DNA from: Candidatus Magasanikiibacteriota bacterium
Lineage (GTDB): Bacteria; Patescibacteriota; Patescibacteriia; Magasanikbacterales; UBA922
Reading direction: 5' to 3'
DNA: 64,000 bases
Assembly: GCA_003518365.1 (NCBI GenBank)
Contig: DOYU01000021.1
Coordinates: forward strand, 492 to 64,491
In this document: in pieces, positions 20,857 through 46,894 of the stretch
Layout of the letters: every line of letters begins with the position of its first letter
Numbering within the stretch: position 1 is the stretch's first letter
Position numbers and translations under genes: made by a program
The notes under the pieces: generated by a model
What the model saw: the letters and a program-made list of their open reading frames with translations, nothing else
Told to the model about the DNA's origin: nothing
Databases searched by the model: none

Positions 20857-20964
20857 AGCGAGTATGAATAGTATATCACAAAAATTATTCTGCTCACATG
20901 GCGAGTCTTGATTTTTTCGTGTATATTGAGTATTATAGCGAAGCAAAAAAAGATGGGCTTGTCC

Positions 20965-21023
20965 TGCCTTTCGCGAAAGGCGGAGCGCGTCCCTCCCTTC
21001 ACGAAGGGAGGGATATATCGTAT
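20965..21023. repeat. Two adjacent GC hairpins of one family. Hairpin A is repeated at 21322-21353, so the GIY-YIG gene is flanked by it on both sides.
   Basis: GGGCTTGTCCTGCCTTTCGCGAAAGGCGGA at 20965-20994, then TCCCTCCCTTCACGAAGGGAGGGA at 21000-21023. TGGCTTGTCCCTGCCTTTCGCGAAAGGCGGGA at 21322-21353. Both flanks also carry a TATAGTG motif. Confidence 0.5.
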
Positions 21024-21047
21024 AGTGTGTATCAAACAGGAGGGGCT

Positions 21048-21296
21048 ATGTTCTATACCTACCTATTGCAAAGTACAAAGGACAACAATTTTTATATTGG
21101 ATCAACGACGGATTTAAAAAGAAGATTCACCGAACATAACGATGGGAAAGTTTCTTCAACAAAATTTCGTCGTCCAATGAAATTGGTATATTACGAAGCC
21201 TATCCAGAAGAACATCTGGCACGAGTACGCGAACAAAAATTAAAAGATTTTGGTTCAGCATACACAGCACTATTAAAAAGATTAGGGTATAAATAA
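21048..21296 (+). CDS. GIY-YIG nuclease-superfamily small protein (82 aa)
   Basis: MFYTYLLQSTKDNNFYIGSTTDLKRRFTEHNDGK...YYEAYPEEHLARVREQKLK carries the YIG motif, conserved Arg and Glu. RBS AGGAGG upstream. Confidence 0.8.
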   Translation: MFYTYLLQSTKDNNFYIGSTTDLKRRFTEHNDGKVSSTKFRRPMKLVYYEAYPEEHLARVREQKLKDFGSAYTALLKRLGYK

Positions 21297-21411
21297 TATA
21301 GATATATAGTACGTTGTATAGTGGCTTGTCCCTGCCTTTCGCGAAAGGCGGGATAAATACTGTGGTCTTCAAAAGAAGATGAGGCAAACAAAAAAATGCA
21401 TATACATACAT

Positions 21412-21484
21412 GGGCGCATCGTATAGTGGTAGTACATTGGTCTCCAAAACCAATTGCGTGGGTTCGATTCCTACTGCGCCTGCA
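21412..21484 (+). tRNA. tRNA-Trp (anticodon CCA)
   Basis: Manual fold: acceptor GGGCGCA/TGCGCCT with a G1-U72 wobble, D-arm GTAT/GTAC, anticodon stem TTGGT/ACCAA with loop CTCCAAA, T-arm GTGGG-TTCGATT-CCTAC. CCA is not encoded. Confidence 0.8.
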
Positions 21485-21538: not shown

Positions 21539-21973
21539 ATGAAAAAAATAACCATCTCCCCCATGCCGACAATAGATTTTCTCTACATATTTTTTGCAGG
21601 TCTTTTGGGGGCAATCAGCTTCGGCATTGTATTTGGACTCATTGGTCTCTTGTTTGCAGATTATCTCGGCTTTCCACTCGCGGTAGGATCTGAAGAATTT
21701 ATGATGGGAGCTAGCATGATCTTCTACAGTACGCTTGCAATACCAGTCGGCGCATATATTGGATGCCTCAAAACTGCAAAATATTTATCATATACAACAA
21801 AAGACCTATACTCTTATTTTACAGGGTTTGTCCTTATTGCGATTGGATTATTTTTGAAAGATTATGTAAGTGTCTATTCATTGCTAGCATTCGGTGCAGT
21901 CAGTGCATTGGTCTTTGCAATGGTAATGGGGGTCTCTGCAAGCAAATCACAAAAGTCTGACATGACAAAATAG
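21539..21973 (+). CDS. Hypothetical integral membrane protein (4 TM)
   Basis: The track ORF 21410.. overlaps the tRNA, so I trimmed it to MKKITISPMPTIDFLYIFFAGLLG. Confidence 0.5.
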   Translation: MKKITISPMPTIDFLYIFFAGLLGAISFGIVFGLIGLLFADYLGFPLAVGSEEFMMGASMIFYSTLAIPVGAYIGCLKTAKYLSYTTKDLYSYFTGFVLIAIGLFLKDYVSVYSLLAFGAVSALVFAMVMGVSASKSQKSDMTK

Positions 21974-22176: not shown

Positions 22177-22827
22177 ATGTATAGAAAAGGAGAAGTCATA
22201 GGTGTCGGGAATGACAAACGCATATATGCTGACGCAATAACTCCTGAGACAAGAGTTATTGCTGAATTTCGCAAGGAACAAACACCTGAAGAAATAAAGA
22301 GTGTGTACTATCTTGGGAACATAGCTCATATATTATTCCCTCAAAATGTACCCAAAGTATATGAAGCAGGGATGCATCCACAAGAACATACGAAAGTAGA
22401 AAGAAAAAAGGTGGATGTCAATCATAAAAATACGGCTGATCTCATGGTGACATACGAAGATTATTTCATGGGAGATGGTGAAACGGGACCTTCTTCAGAA
22501 GAAGATAGTGAGATGGATGTAGATATAGAAAAAAAAGAAACCGATCCAAGAGTAAAACAACTTTTAACAAAAGCGTCTTCTGTCGGATTATATTTTGATA
22601 CAGGCGGACAAAATTTTTCTTTTGACGATTTGGGTACTGTCCAATATCTTGAAGTGAATCCAGCATTTCATATAGAAAAAAACCACGTCCGTTTGCACTT
22701 CAACGAAAGCAAATTAAGAGATGCCATACAAGCATTAGAAAATGAAAAAGAGAAAAAAAAGGCTACACTATATTTCGAACGATTGATGTCTTTGATCCAA
22801 GTAGCACAAAATAATCTTATACAATAG
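22177..22827 (+). CDS. Hypothetical acidic protein of 216 aa, AT-rich, apparently monocistronic between two terminators
   Basis: No recognisable motifs and an acidic middle region (SSEEDSEMDVDIEKKE). Confidence 0.4.
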   Translation: MYRKGEVIGVGNDKRIYADAITPETRVIAEFRKEQTPEEIKSVYYLGNIAHILFPQNVPKVYEAGMHPQEHTKVERKKVDVNHKNTADLMVTYEDYFMGDGETGPSSEEDSEMDVDIEKKETDPRVKQLLTKASSVGLYFDTGGQNFSFDDLGTVQYLEVNPAFHIEKNHVRLHFNESKLRDAIQALENEKEKKKATLYFERLMSLIQVAQNNLIQ

Positions 22828-22911: not shown

Positions 22912-22946
22912 TGAAAAACAGAGTGAAAAACACTCTGTTTTTCTTT
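22912..22946 (+). terminator. Rho-independent terminator
   Basis: AAAACAGAGTG-aaaaa-CACTCTGTTTTTCTTTTTG. Confidence 0.65.
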
Positions 22947-22951
22947 TTGAC

Positions 22952-23212
22952 ATGAAGGGAAGAACGGAGTATTGTACAAGTAAACATATACATTATATTG
23001 GTATGGCTCATCAAAAAAATACAATCGGAAAAAACATCAAACGATTACGGCAAGAACAAAAAATTTCCCAAGATCGTCTTTCAAAACTTGCGGATCTTTC
23101 TTTGAATACTATTGTTACCGTTGAAAGTGGCGCAAACGAAAATCCTACTATTGATACGCTCACAAGGATTGCGAAAGCGTTTCAAGTTGGCGTGGATGAC
23201 CTCATAACATAA
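22952..23212 (+). CDS. XRE-family HTH transcriptional regulator, first gene of the defence operon
   Basis: IGKNIKRLRQEQKISQDRLSKLADLSLNTIVTVESG is a classic Cro/C1 HTH. The true start may be the internal Met at 23003. Confidence 0.75.
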   Translation: MKGRTEYCTSKHIHYIGMAHQKNTIGKNIKRLRQEQKISQDRLSKLADLSLNTIVTVESGANENPTIDTLTRIAKAFQVGVDDLIT

Positions 23213-23220
23213 CACCCACT

Positions 23221-24198
23221 ATGTCTAAACAAACACCTACCAATAATCTCGCTATCTACCAAGCTAAAAACGGCGCGATTGAATTTCGCGGTGATTTTGA
23301 GCAAGAGACGGTTTGGGGAAATTTAAATCAAATTGCCGATCTTTTTGGTCGCGACAAGTCCGTTGTTTCCCGCCATATAAAAAACATCTATAAAACAGGC
23401 GAATTAAACGAAACGGCAACTGTTGCAAAAATTGCAACAGTTCAAAAGGAAGGAAGGAGAGAAGTGATGCGTGAAATTGAGTACTTCAACCTTGATGTTA
23501 TTTTGTCCGTTGGGTACAGAGTAGATTCCAAGCAAGCCACGCAATTCCGCAAATGGTCAACGCAAGCGCTCAAGGCACACCTTGTAGACGGGTATACCAT
23601 CAACAAAAAACGCATCGGTAATAACTACGAACACTTTTTGCGTGCAGTGGCAGAAACAAAAGCACTCCTCCCTGTGGGCAACAAGGTTTCTACCGAGGAT
23701 ATACTTGAACTCGTGAACGCATTTGCTGCTACGTGGTTTTCGCTCGATGCATATGACAAAGACGCATTTCCTCAAAAAACAGCCTCAAAAAAGTCAGTTT
23801 CAGTTGACACTGTAAAGCTACTCAATGCGATTGGTGAGTTGAAGCAAGAACTGATAACCAAAAAGCAAGCAACAAACCTATTTGCACAAGAAAGGAAGAC
23901 GGGAACAGTAGAAGGAATCGTCGGAAATGTATTTCAGTCTGCCTTTGGCAAAGATGTATATCCAAGTATAGAAGAAAAGGCCGCACACATCCTCTACTTC
24001 ATGGTAAAAAATCATCCATTCACCGATGGCAACAAGCGCAGCGGAGCCTTTGCATTTGTTTGGTTTCTACGAAAAGCTGGTTTACTCCGACCAAGTCTTA
24101 CTCCAGAAGCGTTGACTGCCATTACCCTCCTCATTGCAGAGAGTAATCCAAAAGATAAAGACAAAATGGTGGGACTAGTGGTGATGTTAATCAAATAA
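23221..24198 (+). CDS. RhuM-family N-domain fused to a Fic/Doc-type C-domain
   Basis: RhuM-like N-terminus: NLAIYQAKNGAIEFRGDFEQETVWGNLNQIADLFGRDKSVVSRHIKNI...YFNLDVILSVGYRVDSKQATQFRKWSTQ. C-terminal HPFTDGNKRSG matches the Doc/Fic motif HxFx(D/N)GNKR. Confidence 0.7.
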   Translation: MSKQTPTNNLAIYQAKNGAIEFRGDFEQETVWGNLNQIADLFGRDKSVVSRHIKNIYKTGELNETATVAKIATVQKEGRREVMREIEYFNLDVILSVGYRVDSKQATQFRKWSTQALKAHLVDGYTINKKRIGNNYEHFLRAVAETKALLPVGNKVSTEDILELVNAFAATWFSLDAYDKDAFPQKTASKKSVSVDTVKLLNAIGELKQELITKKQATNLFAQERKTGTVEGIVGNVFQSAFGKDVYPSIEEKAAHILYFMVKNHPFTDGNKRSGAFAFVWFLRKAGLLRPSLTPEALTAITLLIAESNPKDKDKMVGLVVMLIK

Positions 24199-24200
24199 CT

Positions 24201-25322
24201 ATGGCAAATAAAAACCTTACAAAAGCAAAAAAGGCAAAAAATGATGAATTTTATACTCAATTTTCAGATATTCAAAAAGAAGTTGAGTCTTATCTTGAGT
24301 ATAACCCAGATACTTTTAAAGATAAGATAATTTACAGTAATTGTGACGACCCGTTCGAAAGTAATTTCTTTCGCTATTTTGTATTAAATTTTGATCGTTT
24401 AGGACTAAAGAGACTTATTTCAACGAGCTACAAACCCTCACCTGTTGCCAATACGCAACTGGGATTATTTGGCGATGACAAAACACTTGAAAAAGTAAAA
24501 GGCCGTCCAAAAGTAACCGCTAACAAATTCATCATCAACGAAGTTGGCGATATCGACGGCGACGGCTCTTTTACGCTAGAAGATATTGCCCAACAGCTTC
24601 GAGCGAATAAAAATAACGAATGGACTCCGCTTGAGGGCGATGGTGATTTTAGAAGTGCCGAATGTGTCGAGTTGCTCAAACAATCTGACATCGTAGTTAC
24701 TAATCCTCCATTTAGTTTATTCCGTGAATATATTACGCAACTTTTCGAACACAAAAAGCAATTTCTAATTATTGGTAGCATGAACTCAATTACTTACAAA
24801 GAAATCTTTGTGTTGATTAAAAATAATAAATTGTGGTTAGGTAATGGGTTTAATGCTGGCAATGCATATTTTTCAACTCCCAATGCGCGAAAAGATTTTG
24901 CTTCTGGTGTGTATGATGAAAAAACTGGTCTTGTAAAATTTCGGAATTGTCATTGGTTTACTAATTTAGATCATGGTCGTCGTCATCAGCCTCTTAATCT
25001 GATGACAACAAATGAAAACCTAAGATTTAATAAAAAAATGCAAGGCAAAACTACTTATGATCGTTATGACAATTATGACGCTATTGATGTACCATTTACA
25101 AAAGCTATCCCTTCTGACTACGAAGGAGTAATGGGTGTTCCTATAAGCTTTCTCGATAAGTACAATCCTAATCAGTTTGAGATATTGGGCTCTGACACAG
25201 ACATAAAAGAAGGTAAACTTCCACTTTTAATAATAAGTAAATGGAATGGAAAGCTAGACAGAGGTTATATACATGGAAAGAGAATCTTCAGTAGAATGTT
25301 TATTAAGCACAAAAAGAAATAA
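24201..25322 (+). CDS. N6-adenine DNA methyltransferase (NPPF motif), tentatively EcoRI-methylase-like family
   Basis: TNPPF catalytic motif in [15 protein letters not shown]-terminal [10 protein letters not shown] block. Starts 3 nt after the upstream stop. Confidence 0.6.
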
Positions 25323-25323
25323 T

Positions 25324-26487
25324 ATGAAAACAACCTTAAAAAATGATATCACCGTTAAAGAAGTTTGCGACGGCTTTGAATACAACGAATTTGAAGGAAA
25401 AGGTTTGTTTGGTCTCTCTGGCAAACTAACTATTCAGCCAGAGTATCAGCGTAATTATATTTATGCTGACGGCAAACGTGACGTTGCTGTAATTGACTCA
25501 ATTTTAAAGGGTTATCCTATCGGTTTGATCTATTTCAATCAGGCTGGTAAAGACGAGTTTGAAGTATTAGATGGTCAACAGCGCATCACGAGTATAGGTC
25601 GTTTTGTTACTGGCAAATTTGCTGTTAAAGATAAAAACGGTCACGAGCAATACTACAGCGGTATGTCTGAGAGTCAGCGTGAGCAAATTATGAAGACTAA
25701 GTTGTTGGTGTATGTGTGCGAAGGTGACGAGCCTGAGATCAAAGATTGGTTCAAGACTATTAACATTGCTGGAGTGCCATTAACTGAACAAGAGATTCTT
25801 AACGCGGTATATTCTGGGCCATTCGTTACTCGAGCTCGTGAAGAGTTTAGTAATAGTCAAAATACCAACATCCAGAAATGGAGTGCGTACATCGCAGGTG
25901 ATATCAAGCGTCAGGCATACTTGGAACGAGCTCTAGATTGGGTTTCTGATGGATCAATCGATAGTTATATGAGCAAACACCGCAATGACAAAAATATTAC
26001 TGAACTAAAAAAACATTTTGATACTATCATTGACTGGGTCTCAACTATCTTTACTGACGTTGAGAGCGATATGAAAGGCCTTGAGTGGAACAGGATTTAT
26101 GAGACATATCACAAGAAGAAATACAATCCGACTACCATCTCTGCTTCTGTTCAGAAGCTCTATGCTGATGGTTTCGTAAAAAGTCGCAAAGGCATTTTTG
26201 AATATGTTTTAGGCGGAGAAGTTGAAACTAAACTACTTGAAATACGAGTATTTGAGGACTCAACAAAACGTTCAGTTTACGAAGCTCAAACTGCTATTGC
26301 AAAGAAAAAAGGTGTTTCAAACTGTCCACATTGTGCTATTGGGCATGATGCCAATAAAGAAAAAATTTGGACTTTAAGCGATATGGATGCTGATCATGTG
26401 GCTGCTTGGAGTAAAGGTGGAAAAACGGAAGCAAAAAACTGTGAGATGTTGTGTAAAACGCATAATCGTGCCAAAGGTAATCGGTAA
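25324..26487 (+). CDS. DUF262 (ParB/Srx-like) N-domain plus C-terminal HNH nuclease; GmrSD/SspE-like architecture
   Basis: DUF262 hallmark [11 protein letters not shown]...[13 protein letters not shown]-terminal CPHCAIGHD...[12 protein letters not shown]...[10 protein letters not shown] (CxxC...DH...N...CxxHN). Start MKTTLK sits 2 nt after the MTase stop. Confidence 0.65.
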
Positions 26488-26493
26488 AATATT

Positions 26494-27987
26494 ATGCACC
26501 TCACAAAAACCGACTATCTCGAATATACCTTTTGCAAAAAGAACCTTTGGCTCAAAAAACATAAGCCAGAGCTTTTTGAAGATGTAGAATTGTCGGAATT
26601 TGAAAAAAAAATTATTGAGGAAGGGAATTTGGCTGATGAGGCTGCAAGAAATTTATTTCCTGATGGAGAATTGATCGGTATCGTCGGAGTAAATGCTATA
26701 CCTGTTACAAAAAAGATACTGGAGAAAAACCCACCAGTATTATTTCAAGGTGCATTTTCATTCAATGACTTTTTTGTTCAAGCGGATATTTTACGTTACA
26801 ACGACATTTTAAAGGGTTGGGAACTTTACGAAGTAAAAGCAACAAATGATGTAAAACGAGAAATCCCTCATCACCATATCAACGACCTTGCGTTTCAAAA
26901 AATTGTAATTGAACAAAATGGGATACACATTATAAAAGCAGGCGTTATTCACCTTAACGGCGAATATAGACAACGAGGCAAAGTAAACTATAACGAACTG
27001 TTCATCATTGCCGAGCTTACTGATGAAGTACTAGAAGCGGAAGAACTTGTACGTGGGCAGATGCGTGATATTCACACATATATGGACATGGCAGAAGAAA
27101 AAAATTGTGAATGTTTGTATCGAGGTAGAAATGCACAATGTACAACGTTCGCTTACTCTAATCCTGAAGTGCCTGAATACTCTGTTCACGATATCAATAG
27201 AATTGGCGGAAGCAAAAAACTGTTTTTTGACTGGATAGATAGAGGGATCTACCGGCTCGAAGATATAGATAACCCAGAAAATCTTACAGGATCAAAAAAG
27301 GCACAATATACTGCGTACATAACAGGTAAGCCTCTCATAGACAAAGAAGCAATACAAAAAGAACTTGGTGAATTGGTTTTTCCTCTCCAATTTTTTGATT
27401 ACGAAGGATATTCTAGTGCTATCCCCAGCTTTAACGGCTTCGGTGCGTATGAACAAGTGCCTTTTCAATATTCACTACATACGCTCCATGAAGACGGAAC
27501 GCTTGAACACCGAGAATATCTCATCACAGAGCCAGAGAATGATTTGACTTTGCCATTGGTAGAAAGAATGAAAGAAGACTTTGATGATGTTGGTACTGTC
27601 ATATCTTGGTACAAATCATACGAATCACAACGAAACGACAAACTAGCAGAACTTCATCCAAATCATGCAGACTTTCTTATTGGCCTCAATGACAGAATGT
27701 TTGACCTCATGACAATGTTTTCCAAAAATTATTATGTGGATGCACGGTTCAAAGGGAGTGCAAGCATAAAAAATGTTCTGCCGGTCATTGTACCGGAATT
27801 AACGTACAAAGTACTTGGTATTCAAAAAGGAGATCAAGCAGTAGAACGTTGGGAAAAAATGATATTTGCAGATATTCATCCAGATGAAAAGAAAGAAATA
27901 AAAAAAGATTTGCTTGAGTATTGCAAATTGGATACTTTGGCGATGGTGAGGATTTGGGAGTTTCTAATGAAAATAAAAAATGTATGA
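26494..27987 (+). CDS. DUF2779-family protein (predicted PD-(D/E)xK-like nuclease N-domain plus RNase-H-like C-domain)
   Basis: N-terminal LTKTDYLEYTFCKKNLWL and C-terminal YCKLDTLAMVRIW are the blocks I recall for DUF2779. The identification is from memory, not searched. Confidence 0.5.
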   Translation: MHLTKTDYLEYTFCKKNLWLKKHKPELFEDVELSEFEKKIIEEGNLADEAARNLFPDGELIGIVGVNAIPVTKKILEKNPPVLFQGAFSFNDFFVQADILRYNDILKGWELYEVKATNDVKREIPHHHINDLAFQKIVIEQNGIHIIKAGVIHLNGEYRQRGKVNYNELFIIAELTDEVLEAEELVRGQMRDIHTYMDMAEEKNCECLYRGRNAQCTTFAYSNPEVPEYSVHDINRIGGSKKLFFDWIDRGIYRLEDIDNPENLTGSKKAQYTAYITGKPLIDKEAIQKELGELVFPLQFFDYEGYSSAIPSFNGFGAYEQVPFQYSLHTLHEDGTLEHREYLITEPENDLTLPLVERMKEDFDDVGTVISWYKSYESQRNDKLAELHPNHADFLIGLNDRMFDLMTMFSKNYYVDARFKGSASIKNVLPVIVPELTYKVLGIQKGDQAVERWEKMIFADIHPDEKKEIKKDLLEYCKLDTLAMVRIWEFLMKIKNV

Positions 27988-29219
27988 ATATGCACAGCCC
28001 TCTTTCTTCAATTCAACAACTACAATCAATATTAAGTAGTCCTTCGAAAAAAATCGGATTCCTTTTTGGGGCTGGAATTTCAATGGAAAAAAAAGATAAG
28101 AGTGATTTGGTGGTAGGAACTGATGACAAAAAAGATGAGAACGGTAATGTAATAAAAGAAGGAATGACAAGTCTCGCAATTAAAAATTTATCAGAGGAAC
28201 AAAAAAAAGCTGTAGATTTAATAAAGAATGAGGTTGAAACAGAAAATAAAAAATTTAACATCGAAAGTCTCTTATCAAAAATTTCTGAAAAAGAAAGAGC
28301 TGTTGGCGATCAAGAGCTTTGTGGTTTAACAAAAGAAAAATTATTAAATTTGAGAAAGGATATACAGGATAAAATAAGAGATTTGGTTTCCGTACATAGG
28401 GTGGATGATAAAGAAATTGATATTGAGGCATTAAATCACAGCACATTTGCTCAATGGATTAGTAATGCTGATAGAGAATTCTCAGTAGAAATTTTTACAA
28501 CAAATTACGATTATCTACTAGAACTAGCACTTGAAAAACAAGGAATTCCCTATTTCGATGGTTTTGTGGGTAGTTATGAAGCATTTTTTTGCCCTGAATG
28601 GATTGAAGATGACACGCCTGTCAAAAATTGGGTAAAGCTATGGAAATTACATGGTTCACTTGGTTGGGCACAGAATAGTAAAAAAGAAATAATTAGAACA
28701 TCTGGTAATACCGGTGCGGCGATGATATACCCTTCATTTTTGAAATATGACCATTCCAAAAAACAGCCATACTTGAGCTATATGGATAGATTGTCCGATT
28801 TTTTAAAGCAAGAAGATTCTGTCTTATTTGTTTGTGGTTATTCATTTGGAGATGAACATATAAATGAAATAATTTTGACAGCACTTACGCACTCTCGCTC
28901 ATCACATGTATTTGTGTTGAAAAATGGAGAAATGGAAAAATCTAGCCATCTTTCAAAAGAAATTGCACAAAAAAATTCTAGAATTTCAGTTTATGCAAAA
29001 CGTACCTGTATTATTGGAGGTAAATTTGGAGAATGGAAGCTCGATAGAGAACCAGACAGAAATGAATCCTACAACATATTAGATTATGCTTTTGATGAAG
29101 ACGCTACACCTGATGGAGTACCATGGACAGGAAGAGGTGATTTTCGTCTTGGAGACTTTAAAAAATTTACGGAGTTTTTAGAGCTTTTCTACCATAATTC
29201 GAGATATATCAATAAATGA
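27984..29219 (+). CDS. sir2: SIR2-family domain protein, the NADase partner of the SIR2-HerA system
   Basis: GFLFGAGIS...FTTNYDYLLE...KLHGSLGW...VCGYSFGDEHINEII is the SIR2_2-type motif set. The start ATG overlaps the DUF2779 stop (ATGA). Confidence 0.75.
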   Translation: MNMHSPLSSIQQLQSILSSPSKKIGFLFGAGISMEKKDKSDLVVGTDDKKDENGNVIKEGMTSLAIKNLSEEQKKAVDLIKNEVETENKKFNIESLLSKISEKERAVGDQELCGLTKEKLLNLRKDIQDKIRDLVSVHRVDDKEIDIEALNHSTFAQWISNADREFSVEIFTTNYDYLLELALEKQGIPYFDGFVGSYEAFFCPEWIEDDTPVKNWVKLWKLHGSLGWAQNSKKEIIRTSGNTGAAMIYPSFLKYDHSKKQPYLSYMDRLSDFLKQEDSVLFVCGYSFGDEHINEIILTALTHSRSSHVFVLKNGEMEKSSHLSKEIAQKNSRISVYAKRTCIIGGKFGEWKLDREPDRNESYNILDYAFDEDATPDGVPWTGRGDFRLGDFKKFTEFLELFYHNSRYINK

Positions 29220-29220
29220 C

Positions 29221-30999
29221 ATGAGAAATAAAGAGACATTTATAGGTAAAGTGAGAAGTGTCACAGGTAGTACGCTTGCTATTGAGTTACACGAAGATAT
29301 TAGATCAACGTTACCTATTATTGATGGGATATTATATAGAATTGGACAAATTGGTTCTTTTATAAGAATTCCTTTTGGTTATGTTGATTTATATGGAGTA
29401 ATTACACAAGCTGGATCAGACGCTATACCAGAAAAATTAGCGGAGCAAGAGGGTTTGAAAGGATCTCGCTGGATTAAGGCTACTCTTATTGGAGAAAGGG
29501 TCGGTAATAGATTTGAAAGAGGGGTGTTGCAATTTCCTATTGCTGATGACGAAGTTCATTTGGTCACGAAGGATGATTTGGAATTGATATATGGTGGAAT
29601 TGATGAATCAAAGTCAATAGTAGTTGGACAGGTCAGTGCCTCTGAAAATCTGTCAGCAAGAATAGATATAGACAGATTAATTAATAGACATTGCGCCATA
29701 CTTGGCTCTACAGGAAGTGGAAAATCAAATACAGTTTCTGTAATACTAGAAGCAATTGCTTCTAGACATCATGATGATGAAAATATAAAAAGTACGAGAA
29801 TTCTTTTGGTCGACCCTCATGGTGAGTATGGCGATATTTTAAAAAATTATAGTCAAATATTTAAGTTAGGAGCAGACTTGTCAAAAGGAGAAAAAGAACT
29901 AGTTGTTCCATATTGGGCTTTACCTTTTCAAGAATTTATAAAAAGTTTTCCAGGTAATCTAACTGAAAAGCAGGAAGAGTACATACGTGAAGAAATTCTA
30001 CAAAGAAAGATTAAGGCTTCTAAAAAATTAAATCCTATTCCACAAGAGGAGGCAATTACAGCTGATAGCCCTATCCCTTTCAGTATTAAACAACTATGGT
30101 TTGACCTTATTGATATAGAGCAAAAAACTTTTAATAACAAGGAGTTAACCGAAGTCGCACTCGAATCACTAGGCGATCCTGAGGCACTTAAGCCTAACAA
30201 ATACTCCATAGCGTCAACAAATAATACAGCCCCTTTCAGTAATAACAGGGTTGCGCAGGGTATTTCAAGTTTTTTAAACTTAATGCGGAATAGAATTTTA
30301 GATCAAAGATTTAAGTTTTTATTCAAACTAGACACGCTCTCTCCTGGTATTGACGGAACTATTTCAAGTGATTTAGACAGTCTCATTGAAAGTTGGATTG
30401 GGACAGAGAAACCAATAACTATTTTAGACCTATCGAGTATACCCTCTGAAATCATGGGTTCAATTTCTGGTTCTTTGCTTTCAATAATTTATGAATTTCT
30501 ATATTGGGGACAGAATGAAGATGTGGGAGGTCGCCAAACACCTATTCTGTTTGTACTAGAAGAGGCACATAATTATCTAAAGTCAGGCGAGAATTCTATT
30601 GCCTCAAGAACTGTACAAAAAATTGCAAAAGAGGGTAGAAAATATGGTTCAGGTTTACTACTCGTAACCCAACGACCTTCTGAACTGGATGATACTGTTT
30701 TGAGTCAATGTGGTTCAGTTATCGCGTTGAGAATGACAAATTCTAGCGATAGAGGCCACGTAAAGAGTGCTGTCGAGGATTCCCTAAACGAGTTAGTTGA
30801 TTTGCTTCCGAGCCTAAGAACAGGTGAAGGTTTAATTATGGGTGAATGTGTAAAATTACCTATGCGAACTAAATTTTCTAAAACTAGGGAATCTAAAAGT
30901 ACAGACCCACTTGTTTCTAAGCAGTGGAAAACAACTCTTCCAGAATCCTCTAACTATAATAAAGTTTTAGAAAATTGGAGAAATAATAAATTTTCTTAA
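29221..30999 (+). CDS. herA: HerA-like (DUF87) ATPase/helicase, partner of SIR2
   Basis: Walker A AILGSTGSGKSNTVSVILE, Walker B ILFVLEEAHNYL, and LLLVTQRPSELDDTVLSQCGSVIALRMTN (sensor/arginine-finger region). Starts 2 nt after the SIR2 stop. Confidence 0.8.
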   Translation: MRNKETFIGKVRSVTGSTLAIELHEDIRSTLPIIDGILYRIGQIGSFIRIPFGYVDLYGVITQAGSDAIPEKLAEQEGLKGSRWIKATLIGERVGNRFERGVLQFPIADDEVHLVTKDDLELIYGGIDESKSIVVGQVSASENLSARIDIDRLINRHCAILGSTGSGKSNTVSVILEAIASRHHDDENIKSTRILLVDPHGEYGDILKNYSQIFKLGADLSKGEKELVVPYWALPFQEFIKSFPGNLTEKQEEYIREEILQRKIKASKKLNPIPQEEAITADSPIPFSIKQLWFDLIDIEQKTFNNKELTEVALESLGDPEALKPNKYSIASTNNTAPFSNNRVAQGISSFLNLMRNRILDQRFKFLFKLDTLSPGIDGTISSDLDSLIESWIGTEKPITILDLSSIPSEIMGSISGSLLSIIYEFLYWGQNEDVGGRQTPILFVLEEAHNYLKSGENSIASRTVQKIAKEGRKYGSGLLLVTQRPSELDDTVLSQCGSVIALRMTNSSDRGHVKSAVEDSLNELVDLLPSLRTGEGLIMGECVKLPMRTKFSKTRESKSTDPLVSKQWKTTLPESSNYNKVLENWRNNKFS

Positions 31000-31010
31000 T
31001 TATTAAACAT

Positions 31011-31223
31011 ATGGAAAGAAAACCAGTACAATCATCAAATCTTGCTGCTATTGGATATGATCCTTTGACAGAAACTTTGGAGGTGGAATTCACAGATGGG
31101 TCTGTCTATGAGTATAAGAACGTCTCTCAATTTATATACGATGAGCTGATGAATGCTTCGTCTCATGGTTCTTATTTTAATAGAGAAATCAGTAAAAGTT
31201 TTCCGTATGAGAAAATAGGTTAA
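31011..31223 (+). CDS. KTSC-domain small protein (70 aa), last gene of the operon
   Basis: PVQSSNLAAIGYDPLTETLEVEFTDGSVYEYKNVSQFIYDELMNASSHGSYFNREI matches the KTSC domain consensus. Confidence 0.7.
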   Translation: MERKPVQSSNLAAIGYDPLTETLEVEFTDGSVYEYKNVSQFIYDELMNASSHGSYFNREISKSFPYEKIG

Positions 31224-43066: not shown

Positions 43067-44905
43067 ATGTCTCAAGAAGAATCAATCATTGCTCAAAGCA
43101 AAAAATTTCGTCGTGGAGGATACATACCAAAACTTTTGAAAAATAAAAAAGTACTGATGATAGTGCTTGTTTTGGTAATGACTCTTTCAGGCGGATATTA
43201 TGTGTATTCAAAAATCGCAAAGAACAATGATACCGCTGTTGCTACGAAAAAAACATATACCGTAAAAAAAGGTGATATTCGTATTTCTACCAATGCTGAC
43301 GGCAGTATTGTTGCCAAAGATGGTGTGAGTTTGTCTTTTTCGAGTACAGGTGTCACGATAAAAAATGTATATGTAAAAGAAGGCGATATCGTCAAAAAAG
43401 GTGACAACATTGCAACAGCCGATACAGGTACCCAAAGCATTGATTTGCAATCAGCGTATGCTTCGTATACGTCTGCGAAAGCAAGTTATGAAGAAAAAAT
43501 TGCAGGACCTACAGAAAATGATTTGGCTTCCTACAAAAATTCTGTTGAAAGTGCTCAAGCAAGTCTTGATAAGACGTTGAAACAAAATGAATATGCAATA
43601 CAGAGTGCGGAAAGTTCTCTAGAAACAGCTCTTGCTAATTTGAAATTGTCAGAAGGTGGTGAACAGAGTCAGATAGTACAAGATGCGTACAACGATATAT
43701 ATCTGGATTCACTCAGTGCGGTGACGAATCTGAATGCAGCGCTTACTGCCTCAGATAATATTCTTGGTATTGACAACATATTTGCCAATGATGTTTTTGA
43801 AAATGTATTATCAGTCTTAGATAGTGCGAGCATTTCTCAGGCAAGAAATTCTTATCTTGTTGCAAAACATACGTTGACAACTGCAGAAAATGCCGTTGTG
43901 GTATTGAATGCTTCTTCTCCTCAAGGAGATATGTTGGCGAGTGCCCAATTAGTTCTAGTAGCTATTACCCAAATGCATCAGCATTATTATGATATGCAAG
44001 AAATGCTTGTAGCAACGCTACCCATTGGTGATCTGTCACAAAGCTCCTTAGAGAGTATGCGAAGCAGTGTGAATAGCAAAAAATCATCCATGGTTTCTTT
44101 GCTCAGTTCTTTCAATGCTTCTCTGAAAGCCATAGATACAGCAACATCAAGTTATGATTCATATAAAAGAGCATATGAAAATGCTCTCCAAGCATTGGAA
44201 AAAGCAAAGAGTGATGCTGAGTCTTCTGAAATAAGTGCCAGATTGAGTCTACAAAATGCAGAACAACAGTTGAAAGAGGCATCGGCTCCTTTGACAGAGT
44301 CTGAGCGTAGTTCCGCCAAGAGTAGTCTTGCAAATGCAAGTGCAAGTGTACAAAAACTTCAATATCAAATAGATCAATCTACGCTCAAATCCCCGATTGA
44401 TGGTGAAGTGGTATTGTTGAATGGGAAAACAGGAGACATCATCGTGGATGAAAAAAATTCTCCTTTTGTAACAATTTTGAATAAAGAAACATTTTTTGTT
44501 GAGACAAATATAGAGGAATCTGAAATAAGTAACATCCAAGTTGGTCAAAAAGCTCACATCATTGTTGATGCACTCGATGAAGCAACGCTTGAGGGTACGG
44601 TCAATTTTATTTCCCTTACTTCTGAAAGTGGTACTGGTGGTGTTGTGACGTACCTTGTGCGTGTGTTGCTAGATGATACAGAGTATGTTGATGTGAGAGA
44701 AGGAATGACGGCAGGTGTGGACTTCGTGATTGCGGAATCAAATGATGTCCTGATGGTGCCAGTGCAAGCAGTACAAAATGTAAATGGCAAACCTGCAGTA
44801 ACCATGAACAATGGAGATACCAGAGACGTTGTCACTGGTTTTACAGATGGACAAACAGTGGAGATTATTTCTGGATTAGAAGTTGGAGAACAAGTAACCT
44901 ATTAA
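43067..44905 (+). CDS. HlyD/MacA-family periplasmic adaptor (membrane-fusion protein)
   Basis: N-terminal TM helix, long coiled coil, C-terminal beta-barrel region. Sits upstream of an ABC ATPase and permease. Confidence 0.7.
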   Translation: MSQEESIIAQSKKFRRGGYIPKLLKNKKVLMIVLVLVMTLSGGYYVYSKIAKNNDTAVATKKTYTVKKGDIRISTNADGSIVAKDGVSLSFSSTGVTIKNVYVKEGDIVKKGDNIATADTGTQSIDLQSAYASYTSAKASYEEKIAGPTENDLASYKNSVESAQASLDKTLKQNEYAIQSAESSLETALANLKLSEGGEQSQIVQDAYNDIYLDSLSAVTNLNAALTASDNILGIDNIFANDVFENVLSVLDSASISQARNSYLVAKHTLTTAENAVVVLNASSPQGDMLASAQLVLVAITQMHQHYYDMQEMLVATLPIGDLSQSSLESMRSSVNSKKSSMVSLLSSFNASLKAIDTATSSYDSYKRAYENALQALEKAKSDAESSEISARLSLQNAEQQLKEASAPLTESERSSAKSSLANASASVQKLQYQIDQSTLKSPIDGEVVLLNGKTGDIIVDEKNSPFVTILNKETFFVETNIEESEISNIQVGQKAHIIVDALDEATLEGTVNFISLTSESGTGGVVTYLVRVLLDDTEYVDVREGMTAGVDFVIAESNDVLMVPVQAVQNVNGKPAVTMNNGDTRDVVTGFTDGQTVEIISGLEVGEQVTY

Positions 44906-44916
44906 GACTGAATGGT

Positions 44917-45627
44917 ATGAGTGAAGAAGTTGTCATACAATTGAAAGATGTCCACAAATCTTATTATTTAGGCAATGGCGAAGAAGTACAGGTCTTAAAA
45001 GGGGTTGATGTAGAAATAAAAAAGGGAGAATTTGTCGCACTCATGGGAGAGTCTGGTGGTGGAAAAACCACGTTACTCAATATTCTAGGATGCCTCCATC
45101 CCCTCTCTTCTGGTACATATTTACTCGAAGGAGAAAATATTGGAGATGTCCGTGATGATGGAACGCTCGCGTTTATCCGTAACAAAAAAATGGGCTTTGT
45201 GTTTCAACAATTCAATTTGTTGTCACGTCTCAGTGCTCTCAAAAATGTGGCATTGCCAAGTCTGTATGCAGGAGTCGACAAAGAAACGAGAAACACAAAA
45301 GCAAAAGAACTGTTAAAACTTTTATCAATGGAAGAAAGAACAGAACACAAACCAACAGAGCTTTCGGGTGGTCAACAACAACGTGTCGCCATAGCACGCG
45401 CGCTGATGAACGACCCTGAAATAATTTTGGCAGATGAACCGACAGGTGCTCTTGATTCAAAAAATGGTTTGGAGATTATGGAAATTTTCAAAAATTTCAA
45501 AAACCAACAAAAGACGGTCGTGATGGTAACGCATACCGCAGAAGTTGCAAAATACGCTGACAGAATTATCTATATGCGTGATGGTAAAATTTTGGATACT
45601 CATTATCAGTTGAAGAGTGAGTACTAA
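44917..45627 (+). CDS. ABC transporter ATP-binding protein (MacB/LolD-type)
   Basis: GESGGGKTTLLNILG (Walker A), [26 protein letters not shown]. Confidence 0.9.
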   Translation: MSEEVVIQLKDVHKSYYLGNGEEVQVLKGVDVEIKKGEFVALMGESGGGKTTLLNILGCLHPLSSGTYLLEGENIGDVRDDGTLAFIRNKKMGFVFQQFNLLSRLSALKNVALPSLYAGVDKETRNTKAKELLKLLSMEERTEHKPTELSGGQQQRVAIARALMNDPEIILADEPTGALDSKNGLEIMEIFKNFKNQQKTVVMVTHTAEVAKYADRIIYMRDGKILDTHYQLKSEY

Positions 45628-45685
45628 TTTTTTGTGAATATACTAGGTAAAAAATTAGAGTTTACGAGGATCATTTGTTGAACGT

Positions 45686-46894
45686 ATGTTTTTAGAAATA
45701 TTAAAAATGGCAGGTGAAGCACTTTGGTCCAATAAGATCCGAAGTTTTTTGTCAGTGCTTGGTATTATTATTGGGGTGTCTACGGTTATCGTAGTAGTAG
45801 GCATTGGGACTGGAGCAAAAAAACAAATAGAAGAACAATACAAAAATCTGAGTGCGACGACCATCATGGTCATGAAACAGATGGGACGAGATGCTGTTTC
45901 TTCTTCAAAACTGGAAGCAGAAGATGCCACTGTTATTTCTCAAAATATTGAACATATAAAGAGTACCACCGTTTTTATTTCGGGCAACTCAACGGTTGCG
46001 TATGGACAAGAATCTGGTTCAGTAAATACATTTGGTATCTATGATACTTTTTTTGATATAGGTAATTTAGAGCTAGAAGCTGGGAGACTTCTCACTCAAG
46101 AAGATGTGAGTAATAAATCAAAAGTCATTGTCATTGGTTCAGGTGCGTTGACGACACTTTTTGGTGAGGAGGCTGAGACTACTCAAGCGGTCGGTCAATT
46201 TATTACTGTTTCTAATAAAAAAATGGAAATAGTCGGCATCCTCAAAGAAAATGGAGGAAGTGTGATGGGGAGAATGTCTTATGATGATGCGGTGTTTGTC
46301 CCATATACGACGGCTGAAAGTATGTTGGGAAATCAAGCCAACATGATGATTGTGGTACTTATGGATGATGTGGACAATTTGCAAACAGGCATGGATGATA
46401 TTACCACTATCTTGCGAATTCAGCATAAACTCAAAGCAAGTCAGGCTGATGATTTTCGTATTTTTGATCCTGGTTCTATTGTCGGCGCTGCCCAAAGTTC
46501 TGCAGATACCATGTCATTACTGTTGGTATCGATCGCAACGATTGTGCTTATTGTATCTGGCGTCGGTATTATGAATGTCATGTTTGTGACGGTGGCAGAA
46601 AGAACAAAAGAAATTGGTATTGCAAAAGCAATTGGGGCACAAAAACAAGATATCTTGACTCAATTTTTGGCTGAATCAGTGATTTTATCAATTGGGGGAG
46701 GAATGGTAGGAGCATTACTTGGTCAAATCATCATTCCCATTTTGAATACATTTGAAGGTTGGTATGTTGTTCCATCTGTTTCTGGAGTGATATTGTCTTT
46801 TACGTTCTCAGCTATTGTAGGTTTATTTTTTGGATTTTATCCAGCACTCAAAGCAAGCAAACTCGATCCTGTAGATGCGTTGAGGAGTGAATAG
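45686..46894 (+). CDS. ABC transporter permease, FtsX/MacB-like
   Basis: N-terminal TM helix, large periplasmic domain and a C-terminal 3-TM FtsX bundle (LDPVDALRSE end). Confidence 0.8.
   Translation: MFLEILKMAGEALWSNKIRSFLSVLGIIIGVSTVIVVVGIGTGAKKQIEEQYKNLSATTIMVMKQMGRDAVSSSKLEAEDATVISQNIEHIKSTTVFISGNSTVAYGQESGSVNTFGIYDTFFDIGNLELEAGRLLTQEDVSNKSKVIVIGSGALTTLFGEEAETTQAVGQFITVSNKKMEIVGILKENGGSVMGRMSYDDAVFVPYTTAESMLGNQANMMIVVLMDDVDNLQTGMDDITTILRIQHKLKASQADDFRIFDPGSIVGAAQSSADTMSLLLVSIATIVLIVSGVGIMNVMFVTVAERTKEIGIAKAIGAQKQDILTQFLAESVILSIGGGMVGALLGQIIIPILNTFEGWYVVPSVSGVILSFTFSAIVGLFFGFYPALKASKLDPVDALRSE

Follow-up and report, generated by a model that had tools for sequence, protein, structure and literature searches.

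SIR2-HerA defence systems of the Paenibacillus sp. 453MF type, reportedly going back to Gao et al. 2020, combine a SIR2-family NADase with a HerA ATPase. This logic is shared by E. coli Sir2-HerA (Nezha; PDB 8j4u) and by the described types I-III, and gating of the NADase by ATP and DNA ends has been described for the E. coli systems (PMC13434337). The Paenibacillus sp. 453MF complex was solved by cryo-electron microscopy (Nucleic Acids Res 2024; PMC11472057; PDB 8w9l, 8wiv, 8wld) and is treated there as a two-gene system, in which HerA residues 576-696, the 'C-terminal arm domain', wrap around the adjacent subunit and lend stability to the hexamer. Here we analyse a SIR2-HerA locus within a block of eight genes at positions 22952-31223 of a 64,000-nucleotide (nt) stretch, hereafter the window, from Candidatus Magasanikiibacteriota bacterium (contig DOYU01000021.1, positions 492 to 64,491).

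The open reading frame (ORF) listing and translation placed all eight genes on the plus strand, separated in block order by 8, 2, 1, 6, -4, 1 and 11 nt, the negative gap being an ATGA at which the stop codon of a DUF2779 gene overlaps the SIR2 start. The block has a G+C content (GC) of 36.6%, compared with 43.9% for the remainder of the window. An earlier note on this DNA, which had described this packing, overlap and AT-richness correctly, left open whether the genes form an undescribed multi-component defence system or systems stacked together, possibly under one XRE regulator. Our comparisons favour stacking, since the modules occur separately elsewhere, and do not bear out one multi-component system. 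We consider it likely that the block is a horizontally acquired defence island of four independently mobile modules packed head-to-tail, which are probably co-transcribed. From their sequences and neighbourhoods, these modules appear to be a helix-turn-helix (HTH) gene with a RhuM-Doc gene, a methyltransferase (MTase) with a DUF262-HNH endonuclease, the DUF2779 nuclease, and SIR2-HerA-KTSC. Only SIR2, HerA and KTSC always co-occur, so the block does not behave as a single system of eight, or of five to six, genes: the HTH and RhuM-Doc genes are found together with the others only here, the restriction-modification (R-M) sub-lineages differ between loci, and nuclease divergence is uncorrelated with that of SIR2 and HerA. 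GC ranges from 33% to 42% among the genes of the block, a mosaic composition that we counted in favour of the modular reading.

The SIR2-HerA-KTSC module

The SIR2 protein aligned with the solved Paenibacillus SIR2 (PDB 8w9l) at 190 bits. Its residues N174, D176 and H223, invariant in 30 homologues, correspond at an offset of 11 in that alignment to N163, D165 and H212, which are named as catalytic in PMC11472057. HerA matched PDB 8wiv_A (696 amino acids, aa) at 475 bits over residues 3-590 against 9-604, and both its Walker A (GSTGSGKS) and Walker B (VLEEAH) motifs are present. The window HerA ends inside the 'arm domain', without the distal part that contains KTSC, and that part is found in trans, in the separate gene that follows. 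The 70-aa KTSC protein aligned to residues 629-695 of the 8wiv_A HerA (E = 1.5e-12) and matched no other solved HerA chain.

To place these features in context, we compared about 130 related loci in all, 80 of which were added by an alignment-based metagenome scan from the SIR2 side. In all 63 loci with contig sequence beyond HerA, KTSC comes next, as a separate gene in 58 and fused in 5. These informative loci span 32-73% SIR2 identity, and the 20 apparent absences of KTSC all coincide with contig ends. Each of the four nearest SIR2 homologues (64-73% identity) comes from a SIR2-HerA-KTSC locus with an adjacent protein of ~495 aa of the PD-(D/E)xK/RNaseH-like type. Pairwise identities of SIR2 and HerA co-diverge across loci (rho 0.90). 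Because KTSC aligns to HerA 629-695 and follows HerA in every informative locus, the eighth gene of the block is the split-off C-terminal domain of a Paenibacillus-type HerA, and this SIR2-HerA clade is effectively three-component, comprising SIR2, HerA and KTSC. The pair named in the earlier note is present, and KTSC belongs to it as a domain of HerA rather than travelling as a passenger, a point missed there. The name KTSC is not used in PMC11472057, and our literature search found no paper naming KTSC in the solved HerA.

The window locus shares with Paenibacillus sp. 453MF the adjacency and order of SIR2 and HerA, the same catalytic N/D/H residues and the presence of KTSC sequence. It differs in that KTSC, part of HerA there, here has a 70-aa gene of its own, as in most related loci, and in that a nuclease gene and an R-M pair stand with the window copy in one co-directional array. 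By analogy, the mechanism would be expected to resemble that of the Paenibacillus system, with a HerA hexamer and a SIR2 oligomer, NAD+ depletion and abortive infection. The E. coli system is more distant, 8j4u giving 110 bits with the window HerA and 66 bits with SIR2. The NCBIfam equivalogs were likewise missed (SIR2_antiphage, NF042942, 78.7 against a cut-off of 500 bits; HerA_antiphage 271 against 850; HerA_antiphage_2 170 against 800), and as these scores lie below the cut-offs the window pair represents a different subtype. In 2022 Iyer, Burroughs, Anantharaman and Aravind referred to unpublished observations of neighbourhoods with HerA, KTSC and an endoDNase (PMC9503650). As in the window, a HerA-like ATPase is coupled there to a KTSC gene with nucleases nearby; the endoDNase, however, takes the place of the sirtuin, whereas here and in the 63 loci SIR2, HerA and KTSC stand together and the nuclease is additional and variable.

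The restriction-modification pair and the Cas4-like nuclease

The MTase carries an NPPF motif, and the DUF262-HNH protein, a putative restriction endonuclease (REase), carries a DGQQR motif and matched the PADLOC model REase_II PDLC03418 over its full length (295 bits), as the MTase did MTase_II PDLC03297; both are type II R-M models. Plasmids of Moraxella, Enterococcus and Pseudarthrobacter carry the same pair in the same order, with SIR2, HerA and DUF2779 all absent from its surroundings, so that the gene order of this type II arrangement with an EcoRI-family MTase is kept on plasmids from three phyla. With the plasmid copies the window REase shares 61-68% identity, and with the R-M endonucleases beside SIR2 in loci L054 and L056 only 40-43%, and for this reason we assign the R-M pairs of those two loci to a different sub-lineage. 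These features point to an autonomous type II R-M pair whose cleavage activity is predicted. The REase shares its N-terminal GmrSD_N (DUF262) domain with type IV GmrSD enzymes; a GmrSD-like type IV assignment was rejected, given a C-terminus that is HNH (PF01844), the lack of a DUF1524 match and the MTase directly upstream.

The DUF2779 protein consists of two predicted nuclease domains. Its N-terminal Cas4/MGME1/RecE-like PD-(D/E)xK domain contains D98, E113-x-K115 and the cysteines Cys14/205/207/216, and its C-terminal DEDDy 3'-5' exonuclease domain contains D302, E304, D404, Y476 and D480. Across four divergent subfamilies C14, D98, K115, C216, D302, E304, D404, Y476 and D480 are kept, while E113, C205 and C207 never vary among close homologues; all catalytic residues of the window protein are intact. 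An AlphaFold2 (AF2) model (predicted local distance difference test score, pLDDT, 80.5) searched with Foldseek retrieved MGME1, Cas4 (SSO0001, Pcal_0546) and RecE for the N-terminal half and E. coli ExoI for the C-terminal half, with probabilities of 0.87-1.0 and marginal E-values (1.5e-3 and weaker). A sequence search of the protein against the PDB gave no matches. This Cas4-like plus DEDD architecture agrees with published predictions (PMC3985635, PMC13621843), and the four-cysteine PD-(D/E)xK domain joined to an RNase H-like DEDD domain is common to solo Cas4/DUF2779 (PF11074) and TM0106-family RecB-like nucleases (PF13482). A CRISPR-associated Cas4 was rejected: PADLOC returned only weak Cas4 matches over residues 3-187 (E = 2e-5 to 6e-3), and no Cas family, including Cas1 and Cas2, was present in the 18 ORFs searched. 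Judged by its domains, the protein most likely acts on free DNA ends, by degrading or resecting them.

The wider distribution of these nucleases revealed no fixed partner. The DUF2779 protein has thousands of relatives, the top 120 being 68-100% identical and spread over many lineages. At 43 loci with homologues of 61-80% identity, tblastn with all window proteins detected no SIR2, HerA, EcoRI-type MTase or DUF262-HNH gene within 10 kb, and the 124 nearest neighbours of solitary DUF2779 copies were heterogeneous (ABC transporters, RhuM, SocA/Panacea, NYN, HD and STAND NTPases). The TM0106/PF13482-type subfamily, which adjoins SIR2 in L055-L057, is widespread at 62-95% identity and matched only weak Cas4 models in PADLOC. 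One of its members lies 4 nt past an operon of a cyclase and SAVED-HNH gene of the cyclic oligonucleotide-based antiphage signalling system (CBASS), another 7 nt past a ThsB-TIR gene; others stand before a HEPN gene or beside a protein of no recognised family, a HATPase_c_3 protein and MjaI R-M. Given the unrelated subfamilies, the lack of co-divergence and this docking on CBASS, TIR, HEPN and R-M genes, the Cas4-like/DEDDy nuclease is a promiscuous companion, accompanying defence systems of many kinds.

Two further observations concern these nucleases. TM0106-type copies at L145:4605-7500, the P0253 locus, L146:2468-4716 and L144:3895-10014 are 71-95% identical to the copy in L056. On two unrelated contigs (L015:1498-9488 and L055:1-8996) a Cas4-like/RNaseH-like nuclease stands with an SNF2 helicase and a large Eco57I-like methyltransferase, with PLD or HATPase_c_3 additions; this arrangement may be a distinct MTase-helicase-nuclease system.

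Adjacency, co-divergence and alternative readings

Several observations weigh against fully independent modules. Among fully informative loci, a Cas4-like/RNaseH-like nuclease adjoins SIR2-HerA-KTSC (in one case one gene off) in 11 of the 17 loci of the close clade (SIR2 identity at least 40%) and in just 2 of the 31 of the distant clade (32-39%; Fisher p about 3e-5). The nuclease stop overlaps the SIR2 start as ATGA both in the window and in L056, where the two nucleases are 24% identical, and this shared overlap hints at selected co-expression. Moreover, an EcoRI-family MTase and a DUF262-HNH gene lie upstream of the nuclease in 3 of the 6 closest loci (window, L054 and L056), which is above expectation for an R-M family that is not especially common.

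The sequence relationships nevertheless speak against a dedicated partner. Six of the 11 close-clade nucleases lie upstream of SIR2 (five adjacent, and that of L065 one gene away) and five downstream of KTSC, and those found beside SIR2-HerA represent four subfamilies with 21-37% identity between them. Nuclease pairwise identity is uncorrelated with that of SIR2 or HerA (rho 0.03-0.04): L073 and L085 share SIR2/HerA at 77/87% identity and the nuclease at 24%, whereas L062 and L124 share the nuclease at 82% and SIR2/HerA at 38/42%. The window DUF2779 protein shares 91% identity with its counterpart in L054 and 80% with a solitary one. The question put in the earlier note, whether DUF2779 recurs directly upstream of SIR2-HerA, can be answered with yes only in part: a nuclease does flank the operon in most close-clade loci, but it comes from four unrelated subfamilies, at either end and without co-divergence. 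A common taxonomic background may account for the enrichment seen in the close clade, these nucleases being common in genomes of the candidate phyla radiation (CPR). Our literature search found no paper linking DUF2779 or Cas4 to SIR2-HerA.

The distant clade has a different gene of ~345 aa directly after KTSC. It occurs in 16 loci (within L086-L137, e.g. L094:13271-14305 and L103:13312-14337, and including one close-clade locus, L080:11890-12921) and co-diverges with SIR2/HerA (rho 0.52-0.60). Its invariant GD...ExK motif suggests a PD-(D/E)xK nuclease. Homology to the Cas4-like nucleases was rejected (hhalign probability 0.2%); a profile search against the PDB returned nothing, and Pfam gave only a sub-threshold match to PDDEXK_15. 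Separately, L065:6841-8151 (AMFJ01000360.1; SIR2 labelled 'uncultured bacterium (gcode 4)') apparently uses genetic code 4, and most of its DUF2779-like nuclease, ~1.9 kb upstream of SIR2, can be translated only with TGA as Trp.

We weighed the stacked-module reading against several alternatives. The first holds that the DUF2779 protein is a DNA-repair or housekeeping exonuclease, or a mobile-element gene, that merely lies inside the island and takes no part in defence. A quasi-essential DUF2779 gene in the minimal cell JCVI-syn3.0 (PMC13621843), solitary copies with some housekeeping neighbours (ABC transporters, SAM synthetase), and very high conservation (70-91% across phylum-level lineages) would fit such a role. 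The window gene, however, has an island-like GC (37%) and stands between two defence modules; at Pfam-annotated loci both subfamilies lie mostly beside R-M, Shedu, toxin-antitoxin, CBASS, TIR or HEPN genes; and 70-80% identity among Uhrbacteria-, Bacteroidetes- and Firmicutes-labelled lineages suggests horizontal spread and not the vertical descent of a housekeeping gene. We regard this explanation as doubtful, if still worth taking seriously.

Under a second explanation, which we consider doubtful, SIR2-HerA-KTSC would form a four-gene variant in which the Cas4-like/DEDDy nuclease is a facultative but true accessory, making or resecting DNA ends that stimulate the HerA ATPase and thereby free the SIR2 NADase from its ATP checkpoint. 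The contrast in adjacency between the clades, the upstream and downstream placements, ATGA overlaps with SIR2 in two unrelated nuclease subfamilies and the co-diverging fourth gene of the distant clade all speak for it, as does a 2026 study of E. coli type III Sir2-HerA, in which DNA ends are reported to switch on the ATPase and so to license the NADase by removing an ATP checkpoint (PMC13434337). Against it stand the missing co-divergence of nuclease and SIR2/HerA, exemplified by L073/L085 and L062/L124, the abundance of close nuclease homologues without SIR2-HerA, the equally tight docking of the same nuclease type on CBASS, TIR and HEPN genes, and the possible taxonomic confounding of the clade contrast. 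In addition, PMC11472057 reports the two-gene Paenibacillus system as a complete defence.

A broader proposal, which strikes us as quite improbable, would make the DUF2779 and TM0106/PF13482 nucleases a horizontally spreading 'universal companion' of defence systems, joined through translational coupling to SIR2-HerA-KTSC, CBASS, TIR, HEPN and R-M modules alike and here linking R-M, nuclease and SIR2-HerA-KTSC in a layered response. The nuclease would then turn ends made by restriction or replication into intermediates that drive ATP use by HerA and release the SIR2 NADase.

A coupled cascade is unlikely, and an integrated one of five or six genes, in which restriction cuts, the nuclease processes ends, HerA senses them and NAD+ depletion serves as backstop, appears highly improbable, because the tight MTase-REase-(x)-nuclease-SIR2-HerA-KTSC order of the window, L054 and L056 and the mechanism from DNA end to HerA ATPase published for another subtype (PMC13434337) are set against the REase divergence between these loci relative to the solitary plasmid copies, the 14 of 17 informative close-clade loci (the exceptions being L054, L056 and L062, the last with a contig that starts only at the nuclease) that are without this R-M family in their sequenced flanks or carry HaeIII, type I or Eco57I-like systems, and the restriction of HTH and RhuM-Doc to the window locus.

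Remaining genes, island surroundings and implications

Coordinates of the genes and of the elements around them are collected in Table 1. The domain assignments of the earlier note stood for all eight genes, curated Pfam cut-offs being passed and PADLOC models agreeing; the 70-aa KTSC gene itself matched no PADLOC model.

Table 1. Genes of the probable defence island and associated elements in the window
Feature	Position	Strand	Supporting evidence
tRNA-Trp (CCA)	21412..21483	+	ARAGORN; 1469 nt upstream of the block
Intrinsic-terminator-like hairpin	22913..22943	+	Perfect 13-bp stem and T-run; closes upstream 216-aa ORF
Sigma-70-like promoter candidate, TTGACA-17-TATTGT	22947..22975	+	10/12 matches; consensus match only
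XRE/Cro-C1-type HTH regulator, 69 aa	23003..23212	+	Pfam HTH_3, 43.8 bits
RhuM N-terminal domain fused to Fic/Doc	23221..24198	+	Pfam Virulence_RhuM, 81.9 bits; Fic, 48.5 bits
EcoRI-family N6-adenine DNA MTase	24201..25322	+	Pfam EcoRI_methylase, 425 bits; PADLOC MTase_II, 354 bits
DUF262/ParB-like + HNH endonuclease, putative REase	25324..26487	+	Pfam GmrSD_N, 81 bits; HNH, 25 bits
DUF2779 protein	26494..27987	+	Pfam DUF2779 (PF11074), 119.9 bits (cut-off 23.3)
SIR2-family NADase effector (predicted), 411 aa	27984..29219	+	Pfam SIR2_2, 78 bits; PADLOC SIR2 PDLC04093, 359 bits
HerA hexameric ATPase/translocase (predicted), 592 aa	29221..30999	+	Pfam DUF87, 128 bits, and HerA_C; PADLOC HerA PDLC04105, 500 bits
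KTSC-domain protein, 70 aa	31011..31223	+	Pfam KTSC, 89.6 bits

The longest ORF of the HTH gene starts at 22952 (86 aa). The start at 23003 is more likely, since the promoter-like site lies over the upstream one, and one public gene call (L007) also gives a 69-aa protein. The HTH protein matched the PADLOC models HTH_VI, capH and those of R-M control proteins. A role as R-M control protein or Doc antitoxin was rejected, because the control and antitoxin models of PADLOC and NCBIfam match at the generic HTH level only, and no conserved pairing of the HTH gene with any other module was found among the related loci and plasmid RhuM-Doc loci. The RhuM-Fic/Doc protein carries the Doc-type motif HPFTDGNKR and matched PADLOC PDC-S23 at full length (372 bits; residues 7-325 against 4-324 of a 327-residue model), PDC-S23 being itself only a candidate for defence activity; its score against NCBIfam DOC_P1 was below the cut-off. 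It shares the HPFxDGNKR motif with Phd-Doc toxin-antitoxin systems and differs from them in that its upstream partner is an XRE HTH gene, not a Phd antitoxin. Its homologues are solitary, in varied plasmid contexts, and among the related SIR2 and DUF2779 loci both HTH and RhuM-Doc were found only in the window. We therefore treat RhuM-Fic/Doc as a solitary candidate defence or toxin gene.

GC falls from ~0.43-0.45 to 0.36-0.38 at about 21 kb, and the AT-rich stretch starts near tRNA-Trp, which lies at the distance of 1.5 kb given by the earlier note. The tRNA gene provides context for the island and is at most a candidate attachment site. At the far end of the island, a search with the tRNA-Trp 3' end gave only short AT-rich chance matches and no direct repeat derived from the tRNA, and no integrase-like Pfam domain marks the island ends among the called genes. 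Of the two bracketing terminators once proposed, the upstream one survived as a hairpin with a T-run that would insulate the block from the 216-aa ORF before it. The 3' candidate at ~31243 was rejected: it pairs a G-run with a C-run around a 27-nt loop without a U tract, it folds no better than shuffled sequences (z-score -0.77), and the terminator scan gave no call there.

The island is unchanged in more than 20 assemblies of one population (metagenome-assembled genome GCA_000998635.1; CPR/Patescibacteria). In one assembly of the window's population (L005:1886-2908) the RhuM-Fic gene is cut down to a 119-aa Fic-only ORF, and in three others (L006, L009 and L010) a 409-aa SIR2 is called 3 nt past the DUF2779 stop, without overlap; these differences represent within-island variation at the population level.

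Between tRNA-Trp and the HTH gene lie two AT-rich ORFs, 21545-21973 (a predicted membrane protein of 142 aa) and 22177-22827 (216 aa). Neither has an above-threshold family in Pfam or NCBIfam, and the 216-aa ORF is also without a PADLOC match. Both are probably part of the same acquired region as the island. Just upstream of tRNA-Trp, the 21-nt palindrome CCTGCCTTTCGCGAAAGGCGG occurs in two identical copies, at 20963-20983 and 21331-21351, which flank most of a GIY-YIG ORF (20898-21296), the first copy lying inside the 5' end of that ORF. The two palindromes may belong to a mobile GIY-YIG cassette of small size, or else form paired hairpins. The window has a second AT-rich region at 43-47 kb (43067-46894; GC 0.35-0.39). 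It was set aside, its HlyD/MacA-like adaptor, ABC ATPase and MacB/FtsX permease forming an ordinary MacAB-like efflux operon.

Taking the four modules together, we infer their enzymatic activities from characterised homologues. The MTase would methylate host DNA at N6-adenine, the REase would cut unmodified incoming DNA, and the DUF2779 exonuclease would degrade or resect DNA ends. KTSC, acting in trans, would take the place of the tip that the HerA 'arm domain' lacks at its C-terminus, and so complete the HerA hexamer. The hexamer would assemble with SIR2 oligomers and control them, and infection would release the NADase, leading to NAD+ depletion and abortive infection, as in the Paenibacillus system (PMC11472057). 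Cross-talk of SIR2-HerA with the neighbouring nuclease or R-M pair is conceivable by analogy with E. coli.

The advance offered here is modest: KTSC is universal in this clade and mostly encoded separately, a nuclease recurs as fourth gene beside the module, and the nucleases concerned are promiscuous. In defence-island mining, genes packed tightly in one direction are often mistaken for a new multi-gene system, and this eight-gene case illustrates how neighbourhood and co-divergence tests separate the modules. The annotation of SIR2-HerA is incomplete, as the family of the first validated and solved system, that of Paenibacillus sp. 453MF, always comes with a KTSC domain; constructs or annotations that end at the HerA stop codon may drop a structural part of the hexamer-stabilising 'arm domain'. 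The highly conserved Cas4-like/DEDDy nuclease, in turn, repeatedly adjoins very different defence systems in candidate-phyla bacteria; as a candidate for a new defence gene, whether stand-alone or accessory, it is tractable.

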